A stretch of 64,000 nt of DNA from a virus (Duplodnaviria > Caudoviricetes). Where the stretch lies: the IMG/VR virus record IMGVR_UViG_3300028048_000064, positions 1 to 64,000 of that record; one strand, written 5' to 3'. A program made the position numbers and the translations under genes. Of this stretch, positions 13,354 to 19,515 are shown piece after piece; within the stretch, counting starts at the first letter, position 1; every line of letters begins with the position of its first letter. The notes under the pieces are model-generated. The model was given only the letters and a program-made list of their open reading frames with translations. It was not told where the DNA came from and ran no database searches.

Positions 13354-14838
13354 TTAGTATGGAAAATCATTCTCATTTTCTTCAACGTTAATCGTAAAAT
13401 CATGGTCAATAATATCAAATATATTGCCAATTACAACATTGTATTTCTTTGACACGAAATTATTGGAGTCTGTATCCTCATCAACAATTGCAAGTATTCT
13501 ATCGGGTATAATACCTTCTTCAATAAAGTCAGTAACCTCACTTTCAGTAAGTTGGTTAATAGCATTATTATACATTGTCAATTCAAGTTGGATTTCCTCT
13601 TTTTCCAATTGTTTCTGTCTTTCAAAGTAATCAGCCTTTATCTTCTCCCAATCCATCCCTATTTCATTAACATATGGTGGAACTTTATCAACAGTAGTCC
13701 AGAATTTAATTTCCTTATCTTCCATTGTCATAAGTTGCTCATATGTATCTTGGTCTGTTGGATTATAAGGTTGGCCGGATACAAGTTGACATTCCTCTTC
13801 TGTGAATTGTTTTCTATCATCCGGATTACTTATAAGAATATTAGACACTTCTTTACCCTTTTCATTTATCTTTGTACGAATGTCACGTGAGAAACATACC
13901 AACAACGGCTTGATTTTCTTATTGAACATTTCAACGTATTTATCCACGTTATATTCGAAATTATCGTCACAGAAATGGTCATCCTCATCCTCAACAATTT
14001 CATTTGAAAGAAGAATACAATTGAATATAAGCCTATCTTCCTCTCTGAATGAATTGCCATATTGGATTTTACCAAAATCAGATTTTGTTATCCATTTACC
14101 ATTAGGCTGTTTCATTTCGTCTGGACGCTCTTTCTTTGCCTTGGTGTATAGTTTTTCCAACTCCTTGGTAATATTGGCTTCTTGACCGTCTATTAAGGCG
14201 TAGTAATCAGTTACACGCTTTACATCAGAGTCACCTTTCTTTGAACCGGTGTTAATGTAGTATATGCTGTCACCCATGTTCACATTTAAATTGTGCTTGA
14301 TTGCAAGTTCATACCACGCTTGGCGTGCTTTCTTTGTACCACCAGCTGTAAGTTGCTTGCAGTTCTCCAAATAGTTGGATATTGAGGTTTTTATTTTACC
14401 AACTGTTGCAATATCTTTAAGTGGTATCTGAAGATTGTATATTTTTTCTACATAATCATAGTATGCTTCAAGAAATTCCTTACCTTTTCCTTCAAGTAAC
14501 AAACGAATGCCTACATCAAGAAACTTCTCAATGTATTTTGGGATTTTTTTGGATTTGATTGAGTTACCGACAAGTTTAATAGAACCGTCCGGCATAAGGT
14601 CGGCATAGTTCTTACGTGAAAATTGTATGCACGCATCACAGTACTCATCCACTCCAAGTCCATTCTTTAAAATACCACCATTATAAGCCTCATACATAAA
14701 TGTATCTTCAAATTCGGCTACGTCTGCTTCAACGCCAACGTATTTTTCACCTTTTTTTACATTTCGGCCTTTCCCAAGCCCGATATATGGGTTTTCTTCG
14801 GTATAACGGTACTTCTTTGGTTTTTGGAAATTAAAACC
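13354..14838 (-). CDS. polB: DNA polymerase B, C-terminal fragment (frame open upstream of the ATG at 14697)
   Basis: Frame reads GFNFQKPKKY...EDTF-MYEAY...SRKNYA...KLVGNSIKSK (palm end and thumb); GGT at 14836-14838 is in frame with 14697. Confidence 0.9.
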   Translation of the reverse strand, partial: GFNFQKPKKYRYTEENPYIGLGKGRNVKKGEKYVGVEADVAEFEDTFMYEAYNGGILKNGLGVDEYCDACIQFSRKNYADLMPDGSIKLVGNSIKSKKIPKYIEKFLDVGIRLLLEGKGKEFLEAYYDYVEKIYNLQIPLKDIATVGKIKTSISNYLENCKQLTAGGTKKARQAWYELAIKHNLNVNMGDSIYYINTGSKKGDSDVKRVTDYYALIDGQEANITKELEKLYTKAKKERPDEMKQPNGKWITKSDFGKIQYGNSFREEDRLIFNCILLSNEIVEDEDDHFCDDNFEYNVDKYVEMFNKKIKPLLVCFSRDIRTKINEKGKEVSNILISNPDDRKQFTEEECQLVSGQPYNPTDQDTYEQLMTMEDKEIKFWTTVDKVPPYVNEIGMDWEKIKADYFERQKQLEKEEIQLELTMYNNAINQLTESEVTDFIEEGIIPDRILAIVDEDTDSNNFVSKKYNVVIGNIFDIIDHDFTINVEENENDFPY

Positions 14839-14840
14839 TT

Positions 14841-14960
14841 TCAGCCGTCGGTGTTGCTCATGACATTCATCCCAAGGGCATTAACTACTGTCCCATCGAG
14901 AGATATGTCGTACACAACACCGACATTTTGGCTATCCTCCATTTTTTTACTGTTCAACAT
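14841..14960 (-). mobile_element. Split intein C-fragment (IntC, 36 aa) plus first three C-extein residues TDG; ORF missed by the track
   Basis: MLNSKKMEDSQNVGVVYDISLDGTVVNALGMNVMSN|TDG*: block F VYDI, terminal Asn, Thr+1 completing PolB motif C. Confidence 0.9.
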
Positions 14961-14978
14961 ATTATATTAATTTACTTG

Positions 14979-15010
14979 CAAAATTACTAAATTTTATTTG
15001 ATTAACCAAA
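14979..15010 (-). promoter_or_regulatory. Bacteroidetes-type housekeeping-sigma promoter for IntC-PolB(C)
   Basis: Minus strand TTTG(15010-15007)-N20-TAatTTTG(14986-14979), 18 nt before the ATG at 14960. Confidence 0.75.
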
Positions 15011-15019
15011 ATATATCAG

Positions 15020-16903
15020 TTAATTTTTCTTAAACCATTTATAAACTGCTGTTCCGCAATCATAAATTCTGTACCATTTTTGTTGCTTACAGAACTCACT
15101 TTCGCTCATATCATCCGGGCATCCATATTTTTTTACAAGAATGCTCTTACGATAATTAAATCTATTTTTCCTCATATCACCTATCACATAGAAATAATTT
15201 GGCGGTGAAAAATGGGCGAAATCAAAACCGAGTTTATTATAAAGGTTGCCTTTAGACCATCTTCGGTCTGCATATGAGACAACACTATTTGGATTATAGC
15301 AATCAACAAAATATTTAAATAGTTTTGATGCCCCGCCAATAACAGTTGTGTTAAGTTTATTACAAAACCTAAGTAACTCATATTCCATTTTACCATCGCC
15401 TATAAAATGTCTTGATTTCCCAAATGTCATCAATGAAACTAATTCTTCATTATAATATAACCCTAACTTAATTTGGCTCGGACACCAACCTTGTATATGA
15501 TTATTCTCTAAGAATTTAGTACATTCCTTTGTTGGAACTTCTCTAATTGTGCATCTTCTAGCGTAGATTTTATTGTCTATTTTGTTTAATAAATTAGAAA
15601 TCATTGATTTCCATATATTTTTCTTATATATCCATTCGTCTTCAAAGATATGAATTAGTCTAATACCGTTCTTTTCGCATTCATTAGTCTTCCATATATG
15701 GTAATTTTTTGGCCTGTTATTTTCGTTATGCCAGAATACGCCATCAAATTCAAATGCTATTTTTAAAGAAGGAATGTACACATCAAGTTCTTTGCCATTA
15801 AGAATTGCCCTGTCATTGTTATGAACATCTGTATAACCAAGAGTTTTGATAAATTCAGCAATCTCTTTTTCTTTTGAAGATGAGTTACAATTATGATATG
15901 GACAGCCATGACCTTGTAAGAACGAATTAGCTTCAATATAAAATGTACGCCCGCATTCATTGCATTTTACTTCAACTTTCTTATCTGATGCTATATATTC
16001 ACTCAATACTGTGTATTTATTATCTCCGTGTATTAGTTCAGCATCTTTTATAAACTGTTCTGTTGTTTTAGTTTTATTTTTAGCAATAAGAATTTTATTA
16101 CATTCCGGACATGGGTCTCCTTTTAAGGAATTATTAAAAAATGTGTTTGCTTTCCTTGTAAATTCATGACCGCATGTTCGACATGTACACTTCATTGGTT
16201 TCATTGTGCCGTCATATGATGTATAATCCACCATTATTGACGGATATAGTCCATTCATTCGTTTTTTAACTTCTTCTAAGGGTAAACGTTGTTTTGCGCC
16301 GCTTTTTCTACCGGCGCATTTTTTACAGGAATAAACACCAGCCAAAATGCTAGAAATCTTTTTAAAATCTTCTTTACCACAGGTTTTACATTTAACAGAA
16401 ACGCTGTCTTTTTTTATATTTTTTTCTCCTTCAAATTGTTTAATATCAAAACCTTCAATTTTTTTTATCAATTCATTATATGAAATAGTTTCTTTGGGCA
16501 ATTCTTTACACCAACATCCTCCTGTTTTAGATGTAATAAAATCACATGCAATCTTTGTAAAAATATTTCCGCACAAATTACATCTTATAGTTATTTTGCT
16601 ATGACTATTCTCATATTCAGTTTCTATATTTGGTAATGAATACCTATTGCCAAACCGTTCTTTAACCGTTTGAACAAAATGTTCCCAATTATTTTTAGAA
16701 TATGTTGCGGCATACTTTTTACCACAAACAGGACAACCTTGACCACGTAGATGATTATGCGGTGTCTGCTGAAATCGATAACCACATTTTTTATGCGTCA
16801 TCCACATTTTAATTTTAGTTTTAATATAACTGTCTGGTTCATAGATATATTCATCCCCATGAACTTCACGCGCTTTATTTTCAAACCATTCGTAATTGTG
16901 CAT
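15020..16903 (-). CDS. Free-standing Hef-like homing endonuclease (Zn-finger repeats, Vsr/PD-(D/E)XK-like core, GNAT/Mom-like C-terminus) inside polB
   Basis: CxxC and HLxGxGCPxC repeats; ELDVYIP...FEFDGVFWH; YELLRFC...GGASKL...SYADRRW...RIYDCG. Confidence 0.8.
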   Translation of the reverse strand: MHNYEWFENKAREVHGDEYIYEPDSYIKTKIKMWMTHKKCGYRFQQTPHNHLRGQGCPVCGKKYAATYSKNNWEHFVQTVKERFGNRYSLPNIETEYENSHSKITIRCNLCGNIFTKIACDFITSKTGGCWCKELPKETISYNELIKKIEGFDIKQFEGEKNIKKDSVSVKCKTCGKEDFKKISSILAGVYSCKKCAGRKSGAKQRLPLEEVKKRMNGLYPSIMVDYTSYDGTMKPMKCTCRTCGHEFTRKANTFFNNSLKGDPCPECNKILIAKNKTKTTEQFIKDAELIHGDNKYTVLSEYIASDKKVEVKCNECGRTFYIEANSFLQGHGCPYHNCNSSSKEKEIAEFIKTLGYTDVHNNDRAILNGKELDVYIPSLKIAFEFDGVFWHNENNRPKNYHIWKTNECEKNGIRLIHIFEDEWIYKKNIWKSMISNLLNKIDNKIYARRCTIREVPTKECTKFLENNHIQGWCPSQIKLGLYYNEELVSLMTFGKSRHFIGDGKMEYELLRFCNKLNTTVIGGASKLFKYFVDCYNPNSVVSYADRRWSKGNLYNKLGFDFAHFSPPNYFYVIGDMRKNRFNYRKSILVKKYGCPDDMSESEFCKQQKWYRIYDCGTAVYKWFKKN

Positions 16904-16977: not shown

Positions 16978-19515
16978 TTATATGCAATTCCTTAAATATA
17001 ATATACCGGCAATTAATGTTTTGCATTCCGAAACTTTGGATAAATCCATTTTTGAAAGAAATTCTTTTTTACATTCAATAGTAGCATTAAGCAAATCGGT
17101 TGGTATTGCTTTTAATTTGTTGTTTGAAAGAAGCTTTATATATTTTTCTATACGTGATTTATCTATTACAATTCCATTATTTGAAATGCCATCTGCATAA
17201 TATTCTAACTTAGTGTCTGAATTAATCTGTGACGGCTTGATTTTTTCTTTATTTGAGTTGAAAAGGCTGTGGTCTTCCGTGACATCAATACACATACTTT
17301 TCTCATTATCAGATATTTTATATATCGGTTTTGTAGTTCTATGGCGATAGATGTAACTTGGTTCAACCCACCCACTTCTGCAAAGTACATAGTACTCTTT
17401 TGGTGAATAATCATATTCACGAGCAAGAACATCTATTTCAATTTTATCTTCATTGATTAGTTCTGAAATAGGTTTGATATCAATTAGCCCACTATCTTTG
17501 TATTTTATGAATAATGGTGTATCAGGTGTGAAACTGTCACCAACGATGGGCTTGTAGTTATATTCATCCGATAAATTTGCTCCATTGAATTTAGATAATG
17601 TGCTAAAATGCCCAATCATAAGACGTAGCATTTGTCTACCTGTACATGTAGTCTGCTCTGGGCCTTGACAATTTGTATCTGTCCAAGGGAATGGTGTGCC
17701 TGAAGATGCACCTCCGAAGTAGGAATTGCCTAAAATTTTGAATGGAAGCTGAAGTGTATCATTTACACCGGATAATACCTTAAATTTAGCTGCATCTTCC
17801 AATAATTTCTTCTTTCTCTCCGCATCATTTTCTTTTTCTGCTTCTTTTGCTGCTTTTTTTGATTTTTTTCCATATGACCCTTTTAAATCTTTGTAATGCT
17901 CACGCATTGACAAAATGTATTCAAGCATTGACAGTAGAACATCCATTATATCAACACTATTATCAATATTATATGTCAAAATAATTGACGGATAAAGTGA
18001 GTTATAGTCGAGTTTTACCACGTCAGATACATGTCCTACGGCGAGAAGCCTTGATAACCCACCTACAAAGGGATTTTTTGCTATTATTTCCGGTACAGCA
18101 AGGTTATGTTCATAACTCCAACCGAGCATAATATATTTCCAAATCGCAGCAGTACCCATTGTACAAACTTTTTCATATGAAACCGGAAGCATTTTACTGA
18201 CAAGATAGTTAGATTGATTATAAGTCAATTCTACTTTATCTGTTTCCCACAAGTCATCGAGAAGATATCTCTGTACAATATATCTACCACTTACATATTC
18301 ATATACAGTATCATTTGAATTGTCCTTTAAATAATGTTTATTATTTTCATAATAGTCAGTATATTTTGGTGAATTGTCTTCTAACACCTTTGATAATCTT
18401 TTATCATCAACTTTAAACCATTCACCATCTATATTATTAAATGCATATGTTTCTGAAAGGTCTTCCCAAGTAGTGTTAATGAGTTTACCTGGTACATAAA
18501 CACGGTTTTCTTTATTAAGTTTGGTGAATTTGGTAATATATTTAAGATTTGCTGATTTAATATTACTATTAATAGCCATTGCACGTCTAACAGCAAACAA
18601 TGAGTCAGTAAGATTAGTACCCCACATTACAGTAGGGTAGAAATATTCCATTTCTCCGCCAAGTTTAAGTACTTGTTGTTTTTTCTTCTTATATACACCT
18701 TTTCTGAAATATTTAAGGGTAAAGTCACCCATATTAACACCCCTTAGTTTAAGACGTACATCAACGAAATTCCAGTCAAAGTTCTCTGTATTATGTCCTG
18801 TTATAACATCTGGCTGTAATTCCTTTATTATTTCAAAGAACTCACAAATGGCTTTAAATTCATTTTCTTTCTTTTCCTCACCTTCACCTTCAACGGTTAA
18901 AATTTTTTCATAACCTTTGTTAGTCCTTATACCAATTTGGCTTATTGCATCTTTCTCTGGGTCAAGTCCTTCTGTCTCCAAGTCCCATTCCATTCTGAGA
19001 AGGTCATCATAATCATCATACCCTTTGAACAATCTTCTGCCGGTTTGTATCATATATTGTTCGTTAGGTGCAACACAGATATATTCTTTTAAACCATAGT
19101 TTTTATCACGTTGGTTTGGATATATTGGTCTGCCGGCTTTTTTAAAAAATTCCATGAATTTAGAATAGGTCATAGGAACTTTTGCATAGAACATAAGCTT
19201 ATAACCATTCTTCATACGTTCCGGTTCTGAACCATCATCTCGTGTAGTCCTCAATGATTTTACACCTATTCCATATTCGGACATTTTAAGTTTAATTTGT
19301 TTTCTATTACCGTCGAATAGGTTTTGTGCTGTACTTTCTTTTGTCCATACAAAAGGAAAGAAGTTTTCCCTCTTAATCATTTTCTTTCCTTCTTCATTGC
19401 GGTATATGATGCTTACCTTATTATCATCATAACCACATTCAATCTTAATAATTCTTTCCATTGGGTCGGAACCATTCAAGAAAAAATCAATATCTTCTTT
19501 ACTTACTTTTGACAT
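16978..19515 (-). CDS. polB: DNA polymerase B, N-terminal fragment fused to split intein N-fragment
   Basis: ExoI WDLETEG, ExoII HNTENFD, motif A DYNSLYPS, motif B KILGNSYFG, motif C cut at IVGD. Confidence 0.93.
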   Translation of the reverse strand: MSKVSKEDIDFFLNGSDPMERIIKIECGYDDNKVSIIYRNEEGKKMIKRENFFPFVWTKESTAQNLFDGNRKQIKLKMSEYGIGVKSLRTTRDDGSEPERMKNGYKLMFYAKVPMTYSKFMEFFKKAGRPIYPNQRDKNYGLKEYICVAPNEQYMIQTGRRLFKGYDDYDDLLRMEWDLETEGLDPEKDAISQIGIRTNKGYEKILTVEGEGEEKKENEFKAICEFFEIIKELQPDVITGHNTENFDWNFVDVRLKLRGVNMGDFTLKYFRKGVYKKKKQQVLKLGGEMEYFYPTVMWGTNLTDSLFAVRRAMAINSNIKSANLKYITKFTKLNKENRVYVPGKLINTTWEDLSETYAFNNIDGEWFKVDDKRLSKVLEDNSPKYTDYYENNKHYLKDNSNDTVYEYVSGRYIVQRYLLDDLWETDKVELTYNQSNYLVSKMLPVSYEKVCTMGTAAIWKYIMLGWSYEHNLAVPEIIAKNPFVGGLSRLLAVGHVSDVVKLDYNSLYPSIILTYNIDNSVDIMDVLLSMLEYILSMREHYKDLKGSYGKKSKKAAKEAEKENDAERKKKLLEDAAKFKVLSGVNDTLQLPFKILGNSYFGGASSGTPFPWTDTNCQGPEQTTCTGRQMLRLMIGHFSTLSKFNGANLSDEYNYKPIVGDSFTPDTPLFIKYKDSGLIDIKPISELINEDKIEIDVLAREYDYSPKEYYVLCRSGWVEPSYIYRHRTTKPIYKISDNEKSMCIDVTEDHSLFNSNKEKIKPSQINSDTKLEYYADGISNNGIVIDKSRIEKYIKLLSNNKLKAIPTDLLNATIECKKEFLSKMDLSKVSECKTLIAGILYLRNCI
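16981..17535 (-). mobile_element. Split intein N-fragment (IntN, 185 aa)
   Basis: Block A SFTPDTPLFI directly after IVGD; block B DVTEDHSLF; no block F/G before the stop. Confidence 0.9.

Follow-up and report, generated by a model that had tools for sequence, protein, structure and literature searches.

A candidate ribosomal stop-hop beside a split intein in the PolB gene of rumen jumbo phages

How can a phage make an intact replicative polymerase from a gene that is divided by a split intein and then closed by a stop codon three codons after the intein? This question is raised by the PolB locus in the first 64,000 nucleotides (nt) of the IMG/VR virus record IMGVR_UViG_3300028048_000064 (Duplodnaviria; Caudoviricetes); this whole 64,000-nt stretch is referred to here as the window. 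The answer favored here is that a peptidyl-tRNA-Gly(GCC) hops over the stop codon to a second, matching glycine codon, and that the resulting protein is then joined to the N-terminal part of the polymerase by protein trans-splicing; judged from the sequences, the probability of this reading is about 0.72. The parts of the locus, with lengths in amino acids (aa) and open reading frames abbreviated as ORFs, are as follows.

17536..19515, minus strand: PolB N-extein (PolB-N), 660 aa, ending ...KPIVGD; ORF that spans the exonuclease domain and the beginning of the polymerase domain
16978-19515, minus strand: ORF call of PolB-N plus IntN, including the stop
16981..17535, minus strand: IntN, the N-terminal half of the split intein, 185 aa, starting with SFTPDT and with block B TEDH; stop at 16978-16980
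15020..16903, minus strand: free-standing homing-endonuclease-like ORF, 627 aa, between the intein halves, carrying an array of Zn-ribbons, a nuclease of the Vsr/PD-(D/E)xK-like type and a C-terminus weakly resembling Mom
14853..14960, minus strand: IntC, the C-terminal half of the split intein, 36 aa, MLNSKKMEDSQNVGVVYDISLDGTVVNALGMNVMSN; the 39-aa ORF 14841-14960 ends ...NVMSNTDG-stop
14844..14852, minus strand: first C-extein codons ACC GAC GGC (T-D-G), with the proposed take-off codon GGC at 14844-14846
14839..14843, minus strand: coding gap TGA AA, consisting of the stop TGA (14843-14841) and a 2-nt spacer AA (14840-14839)
14836..14838, minus strand: proposed landing codon GGT, a Gly codon being found here in every variant
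13354..14835, minus strand: remainder of PolB (PolB-C), an ORF of 493 codons plus stop from TTT (F of FNF), where decoding would resume (14835-14833); 1223 homologues

Positions 14861-14830 of the minus strand read AGC AAC ACC GAC GGC TGA AA GGT TTT AAT TTC. Relative to the IntC frame, that of PolB-C is shifted by 8 nt, and it extends as an open frame from 14880 to 13354. The first ATG, GTG or TTG of the PolB-C frame is at 14697 (residue 48), leaving 47 codons after the landing codon without a start. An earlier note on this DNA had described the locus in the same terms, with the IntC ORF ending SN-TDG-stop, the 493 PolB codons 8 nt further on and the first ATG at 14697, and a re-reading of the sequence agrees; it had also held that a hop from GGC to GGT would give IVGDTDGFNF, and this is indeed the motif of intein-less homologues, which read ...PIVGDTDGFNF... 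unbroken (VGDTDGFNF is contiguous in 48 loci). A PolB-C search retrieved 1223 homologues, the best 120 of which were examined for the motif. Most of these 120 consist of one ORF of 520-551 aa with ...SNTDGFNF... unbroken, and IntC is fused in frame to PolB-C in more than 100 relatives. Thus, the proposed join is the normal sequence of the family.

The 8 nt are kept with 0 gaps in contigs of four sequencing runs from four studies, all coordinates being those of the window.

Spans the site: run 1, the probable source run, 92-kb contig at depth 70, no indel
14665-15400: run 2, metatranscriptome library, 3363-nt contig, 0 differences
14531-14906: run 3, DNA study, 376-nt contig, 2 substitutions, no indel
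14801-14877: run 4, DNA study, 77-nt contig, no indel

A joined form without the 8 nt is not present among the contigs of those four runs, although contigs may mask rare variants. Since the contigs retain the 8 nt, an assembly error is excluded, and these independent runs together with the many variants in relatives described below rule out a private insertion as well. The same contigs bear less strictly on processing of the RNA, given that they are assembled sequences and that the RNA library may contain DNA. Removal or editing of the 5-10 nt at the RNA level, that is, a micro-intron, would restore TDGFNF just as a hop would, although nothing direct speaks for it. It appears highly improbable considering that the 3363-nt metatranscriptome contig retains the 8 nt with no joint found, that no RNA family is matched in the three related loci scanned, and that splicing of such varied inserts of 5-10 nt is unknown in any system.

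The break recurs in the relatives of this phage. In several loci in which an ORF starts just after FNFQ, the DNA holds a break of the same type with other inserts (L002 to L006, below). A homology-based sample of 80 IMG/VR loci adds GGC TGA AT GGC, GGC TGA AT GGT, GGT TAA AT GGT, GGT TA GGT and GGC TGA A GGC, and pattern scans of viral and metagenome contigs raise the total to approximately 55 true hits with approximately 21 variants, all at one Gly codon of related rumen jumbo phages.

L003, L004: GGC TGA CA GGA
L005, L006: GGC TGA AC GGT
L002: GGT TAG CTAA GGT
Shift of +5: GGT TA GGT
Shift of +6: GGT TAA GGY (including GGT TAA GGT, in frame)
Shift of +7: GGC TGA A GGC
Shift of +8: GGC TGA NN GGN; GGC TAA CT GGA; GGT TAA AT GGT
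Shift of +9: GGY TAG NTA GGN (including GGC TAG CTA GGT, in frame)
Shift of +10: GGC TAG CTGA GGT; GGT TAG CTAA GGT

The recurrence of Gly-stop-N(0-4)-Gly at the same codon is far beyond chance. Shifts of +5, +6, +7, +8, +9 and +10 are all present, with 2-7 nt between the two Gly codons, and all three frames are represented. In every true hit, a stop (TGA, TAA or TAG) directly follows the take-off codon, the scan pattern having permitted any TRN codon (8 codons) at this position; the three scan matches in which no stop follows the take-off codon have no IntC context, and a scan permitting any insert of 1-12 nt detected no insert lacking a stop in the true context. The landing codon is GGT, GGC or GGA in all variants. 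At take-off, the 9 viral-contig hits use GGC or GGT and never GGR, and the same holds for the loci found by homology, whereas the metagenome scan requested GGY take-off codons only; the lack of GGA and GGG take-off codons in viral contigs is weakly significant, given that about 30% of the ungapped IntC alleles use GGR. Gaps are limited to intein-bearing alleles: in the 80-locus sample, they occur in 5 of the 29 IntC alleles and in none of the 48 intein-less ones (Fisher p 0.006, the loci not being independent), and scans with patterns anchored on the GAT/GAC ACN GAY context found none in intein-less alleles either. The earlier note had considered a recent or private insertion as an alternative, and the closest relatives (L007-L010), in which SNTDGFNF is contiguous and the gap absent, are in line with this, yet the gap recurs in diverged relatives and so is not private; the pattern of Gly, stop, short gap and Gly that the note suggested looking for in related polB genes recurs as the +5 to +10 variants, in all frames.

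These observations suggest the following course of events. A ribosome would start at ATG 14960, translate the 36-aa IntC and then T-D-G, and reach the UGA with peptidyl-tRNA-Gly(GCC) on GGC in the P site and the stop codon in the A site. In a fraction of the ribosomes, the tRNA would release GGC ahead of the action of release factor 2 (RF2), the mRNA would slip by 8 nt, and the anticodon would re-pair with GGU; the landing codon would not be decoded again and decoding would resume at UUU. The predicted hop product is IntC-TDGFNF...PolB-C, with the junction ...SNTDGFNFQK or ...IVGDTDGFNFQK, and the precursor peptide ...NVMSNTDGFNFQK. This product would be trans-spliced with PolB-N-IntN into a PolB of 1156 aa with motif C IVGDTDGFNF (predicted spliced peptide PIVGDTDGFNFQK), and the ribosomes that terminate would release the 39-aa IntC-TDG. 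One and the same peptidyl-tRNA can pair with both the take-off and the landing codon, from GGC to GGT in the window and from GGY to GGT, GGC or GGA across all variants. Because a single mechanism would serve all frames, and because only a hop yields TDGFNF throughout, in every variant, the hop is preferred.

The frames of the individual variants could also be reached by a mixture of conventional recoding events, namely, a -1 frameshift in the +5 and +8 variants, a +1 frameshift in the +7 variant, and read-through or suppression of the stop in the +6 and +9 variants. Upstream of the landing site in the window, 14 codons of the landing frame are free of stops, and a suppressor tRNA with the anticodon UUA encoded by the phage (see below) could read the TAA gaps in relatives. 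The window stop itself is TGA, which is not read by this suppressor, and read-through would not help where the downstream frame differs: only the +6 and +9 gaps of relatives are in frame with the stop, and the offset in the window is 8 nt. Frameshifting cannot serve the +10 variants because, in both of them, the +1 frame is closed by a TAA or TGA directly before the landing codon. At the window site, there is no slippery heptamer of the X XXY YYZ type, and a shift in the P site from GGC to CGG would retain only the middle base pair. Moreover, mixed recoding would add 2-3 residues after DTDG (TDG-LKG-FNF in the window, with the peptide TDGLKGFNFQK), and motif C tolerates no insertion after the catalytic DTD in the homologues listed (none has residues between DTDG and FNF among the best 120 and in the 80-locus sample). 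With three different mechanisms needed at one codon, this explanation is quite unlikely.

Another way to obtain a working enzyme is to make PolB in two pieces, in which case IntC-TDG would terminate and be trans-spliced into PolB-N...IVGDTDG, and PolB-C, produced by coupled re-initiation near GFNF, would bind it non-covalently. Split PolB enzymes occur in some T4-like phages and in Methanothermobacter. The stop closes the IntC-TDG ORF in every variant, gap lengths in any frame are irrelevant for two separate ORFs, and an ATG or TTG is found at residue 6 (FNFQ-M) in 16 of the 30 distinct gapped loci. A Met at this position is, however, equally common in uninterrupted alleles, and the duplicated Gly codon is left without a reason. 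In no gapped locus does the landing frame contain an ATG, GTG or TTG up to and including the landing codon, and 11 of the 30 have no start codon within the first 22 codons after landing either, the first one appearing at residue 23-59 (in the window, 47 codons are start-less). Yet this stretch is conserved and shows the evolution of coding sequence: over the first 22 codons of the 11 loci, the first, second and third codon positions have mean pairwise differences of 0.22, 0.11 and 0.54, respectively. Divergence with coding periodicity in a start-less region leaves separate initiation unsupported, so that production of PolB-C from the ATG at 14697, an outcome raised in the earlier note, is unlikely, and so, on the whole, is a PolB made in two pieces.

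The PolB-C of the gapped alleles is under strong purifying selection. ORFs of 470-500 codons are intact in all full-length gapped loci, the ratio of non-synonymous to synonymous substitution rates (dN/dS) is 0.05-0.15 at dS 0.4-2.3 between sister lineages that share a gap, and the value for the window PolB-C against L007 is 0.07. The landing codons of sister pairs vary only among Gly codons, e.g., GGT vs GGC (L090/L116; L102/L114). Furthermore, the gapped gene is the only PolB in two large related genomes, one of 409.5 kb that is 100% complete with inverted terminal repeats (G001) and one of 334.7 kb that is 96% complete (G002), and a single PolB/PolB-C copy was detected in the record of the window (G000).

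These data bear directly on the possibility that the gapped alleles are non-functional, the gap being a scar of nuclease action and repair in a selfish intein module and the polymerase being supplied by co-infecting relatives. The limitation of gaps to intein-bearing alleles, the gap-free state of the nearest relatives, the occurrence of many related phages within single samples (run X4) and an IntC module that is far more alike between phages than PolB-C are all compatible with such a scar. The intact PolB-C ORFs and the low dN/dS values argue against it, as does the uniform design, which combines a stop with a matched Gly codon and does not resemble random indels. The phage of the window itself is found at depth 70 and in several studies. 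When 60 PolB-C sequences are placed on a quick maximum-likelihood tree (IQ-TREE), a clade with 13 rows (12 gapped sequences and the nested intein-less L027) has kept +9 and +10 TAG-type gaps, with branch lengths of up to 0.55. Taken together, it is very doubtful that the gapped alleles are dead.

On the same tree, the gap state requires at least 10 changes and the same gap type is found on distant PolB-C backbones; the gapped loci were partly picked by gap pattern, which makes the tree unsuitable for estimating frequencies. Over the last 27 codons of IntC, nucleotide identity is 80-98% between phages in which the PolB-C proteins are only 50-63% identical, and near-identical IntC modules carry different gaps (L102, +6 vs L105, +8; L017, +8 vs L122, +9). 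The window IntC is closer to those of L017 and L003 than to that of the gap-free L007, which is the closest relative of its PolB-C. The gap lies 9 nt into the C-extein, at the 3' edge of the intein module. These comparisons suggest that the split-intein module moves horizontally and that the gap changes length freely, as would be expected of an untranslated spacer. Contigs of related phages in one sample (run X4) agree with the window across IntC, the gap and five codons past the landing site and diverge below 14823, a boundary that may be the recombination edge of the module.

The identification of the locus as a fractured gene with a naturally split intein follows, at the sequence level, from the separate intein halves, the endonuclease gene between them and the contiguity of intein-less homologues. 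The splicing motifs comprise Ser1 (SFTPDT), TEDH and ...MSN/T, the penultimate residue being Ser, not His. PolB-N matches PF03104 (E 8.6e-13) and PF00136. IntN aligns with positions 2-82 of the 83 positions of the NCBIfam model TIGR01445 (intein_Nterm; E 0.0015, 19.5 bits, which is below the cut-off of 24.5) and shows a weak match to the Nanoarchaeum NEQ068 chain. The 627-aa ORF matches PF14311 (3.8e-8) and, weakly, PF18741, PF25680 and the Vsr model TIGR00632 (E 0.029); its homologues adjoin IntC in relatives with and without a gap alike, and in L003, two such endonuclease-like genes are found in tandem upstream of IntC. In the 59-nt spacer before IntC (14961-15019, minus strand), TAATTTTG is located approximately 25 nt upstream of the ATG and fits the Bacteroidota -7 promoter motif TAnnTTTG; a scan of 14700-15150 for sigma-70 promoters and terminators gave no score above those of shuffled sequences.

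Other intein alleles with distinct IntC bodies (ISANGTFVNALG..., STEDGTFICGINGII...) and with the ends ...CHN/TDG or ...IAHN/TDG occupy the same PolB site in L010, L043, L056, L062, L065, L067, L076 and L084, none of them gapped. Several intein lineages thus target motif C. In six loci (L042, L044, L045, L094, L098 and L110), PolB-C is broken again after approximately residue 70 by 240-330 nt and a frame change (e.g., L044:3216-3548 and L094:6256-6499). A small intron is one possible identity of this second interruption, a further mobile insert another; an Rfam scan of L044, L094 and L110 matched no family.

Several points weigh against the proposed hop. The backing from the RNA library consists of contigs that possibly derive from carried-over DNA. 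Given the apparent movement of the IntC module between lineages, the purifying selection could in part be older than the gap. Landing on GGA, as in some variants, involves a non-cognate wobble for tRNA-Gly(GCC) with 2 of the 3 base pairs. No stimulatory hairpin was found: the 77 nt around the window site fold worse than shuffled sequences (z +1.46), the z-scores across the loci scored range from +1.46 to -1.0, and a strong 8-bp stem is seen in L003 and L126 only. The complementarity between an upstream arm and the gap in 29 loci is no better than in permuted pairs (p ~0.2). The nascent chain at take-off is the IntC peptide, the sequence of which is already constrained by splicing. Unstimulated stop-hops of synthetic constructs in Escherichia coli reportedly reach about 1% or less, which seems low for the sole replicative polymerase; the efficiency is the main weakness of the proposal. 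Finally, the gap brings no obvious benefit, since the nearest relatives manage without it.

Why, then, would the gap exist? Lying at the edge of a horizontally mobile module, it may be a scar of nuclease action at an invariant motif or a shield against such action, like the T4 gene 60 gap against MobA, although this is a weaker inference than the hop itself. Self-immunity against the resident endonuclease is unsupported: L007 encodes an 89%-identical endonuclease and has no gap, and the reverse is the case in G002 (L094, L128, L139-L144), which has a +8 gap and no room for the endonuclease. In this genome, about 870 nt (~150597-151463) separate the PolB-N and PolB-C matches, which is too short for a 627-aa gene and hence points to a split intein without an endonuclease. 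One could speculate that the terminated IntC-TDG caps PolB-N and acts as a regulator. A broader scheme, which is tentative and on balance doubtful, would have the gap as a working part of the mobile split-intein module that is spread by homing among rumen jumbo phages, with a stimulator-free stop-hop operating in any frame; the gap would be kept either as a shield of the motif-C DNA or to set the ratio of full-length PolB to truncated PolB-N capped by IntC-TDG.

The record of the window is 149,924 bp long and estimated to be 41% complete, and therefore comes from a jumbo phage. The runs that hold its sequence are bovine gut metagenomes, and the phage is one of the cattle rumen; a blastn search against the INPHARED phage records gave no match. 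A scan of the entire record for sites where a codon, a stop, a short spacer and a synonymous codon lead into a long start-less ORF returned the PolB site only. Beyond the window, the record contains a cluster of 23 tRNA genes (124728-136201; L135), including Gly(GCC) and Gly(UCC) and the suppressor tRNA with the anticodon UUA, which reads UAA (136130-136201), and a transfer-messenger RNA (tmRNA) gene with the tag GETTYALAA (134483-134882). Carriage of a tmRNA and an ochre suppressor may indicate that ribosomes are rescued or stop codons recoded late in infection. A link of the gap to the phage tRNA-Gly(GCC) was rejected, the gene being 100% identical in the gap-free genome G003 and giving no BLAST match in the gapped G002.

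Few decoding events are as rare as translational bypassing. In nature, it is accepted or suspected in T4 gene 60 and its homologues, the byp elements of yeast mitochondria and the Hau3 terminase (PMC5009743, PMC10732093), and no paper on a hop after an intein or in a PolB was found. At the PolB site, about 21 naturally occurring alleles are available, with shifts of +5 to +10 in three frames, at one codon of an essential polymerase and with no evident stimulator. If the proposed hop is real, essential genes can depend on short ribosomal hops, what take-off and landing minimally require can be tested with a ready-made allelic series, bypassing is linked for a second time to homing-endonuclease or intein mobility, and a single gene needs a ribosomal hop as well as protein trans-splicing. 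A practical aspect concerns annotation: gene callers split such genes, with 39-41-aa ORFs followed by a 5'-truncated PolB-C on record, and therefore the polymerases of such phages may be mis-annotated as broken.

Among known systems, T4 gene 60 with MobA resembles the PolB locus in having a Gly take-off codon followed by a stop and a matching Gly landing codon (10.1101/2022.08.31.505936; PMC5009743), and likewise is an essential replication gene that is split by a mobile endonuclease element and carries the gap in a highly conserved coding stretch. The T4 gap shields the DNA of this stretch from nicking by MobA (10.1101/2022.08.31.505936), and a similar protective role of the PolB gap is conceivable by analogy. 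The differences are substantial: the T4 gap is 50 nt long compared with shifts of 5-10 nt here, the T4 take-off stem-loop has no counterpart that could be found, the T4 gene encodes a topoisomerase without sequence homology to PolB, and the split intein in PolB implies that the hop would have to precede trans-splicing. The fractured genes described by Dassa et al. (2009; PMC2677866) share the order of N-extein with IntN, endonuclease ORF, and IntC with C-extein, whereas no break after IntC was described in them and bypassing was mentioned only as an unlikely option for the intervening hundreds of bases.

With respect to the hop itself, one of the closest published cases is the synthetic stop-hop observed with reporters in E. 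coli (Weiss et al. 1987, reviewed in PMC5009743), in which matched codons surround a stop, the shifts are +5, +6 and similar, and no further signals are required; the +6 variant GGT TAA GGT of relatives has the exact form of such a construct. Those hops were engineered and of low efficiency, whereas the PolB site is natural, recurrent and located in a sole essential gene. According to a 2016 review of recoding, shorter counterparts of bypassing had long been presumed, and natural in-frame stop-hops were unknown (PMC5009743). The large terminase gene of Streptomyces phage Hau3 (Smith et al. 2013; PMC10732093) similarly contains short frame-disrupting inserts in an essential phage gene, with flanks that are contiguous in relatives, and bypass of its 10-nt gaps is backed by a junction peptide detected by mass spectrometry in E. 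coli (PMC10732093). The trigger in Hau3 is the rare sense codon UUA, for which a link to the growth phase of the host has been proposed, three such genes are known, and a stem-loop and a Shine-Dalgarno sequence have been put forward as stimulators, with no link to an intein; at the PolB site, the trigger would be a stop codon, in about 21 variants and with no evident stimulator. The mitochondrial byp elements of Magnusiomyces capitatus (PMC5009743) are short, mobile-looking inserts that are skipped by means of matched take-off and landing codons as well, but they are 27-55 nt long and occupy many sites per genome in yeast mitochondria, in contrast to the one site in PolB, which is found in phages and is linked to an intein.

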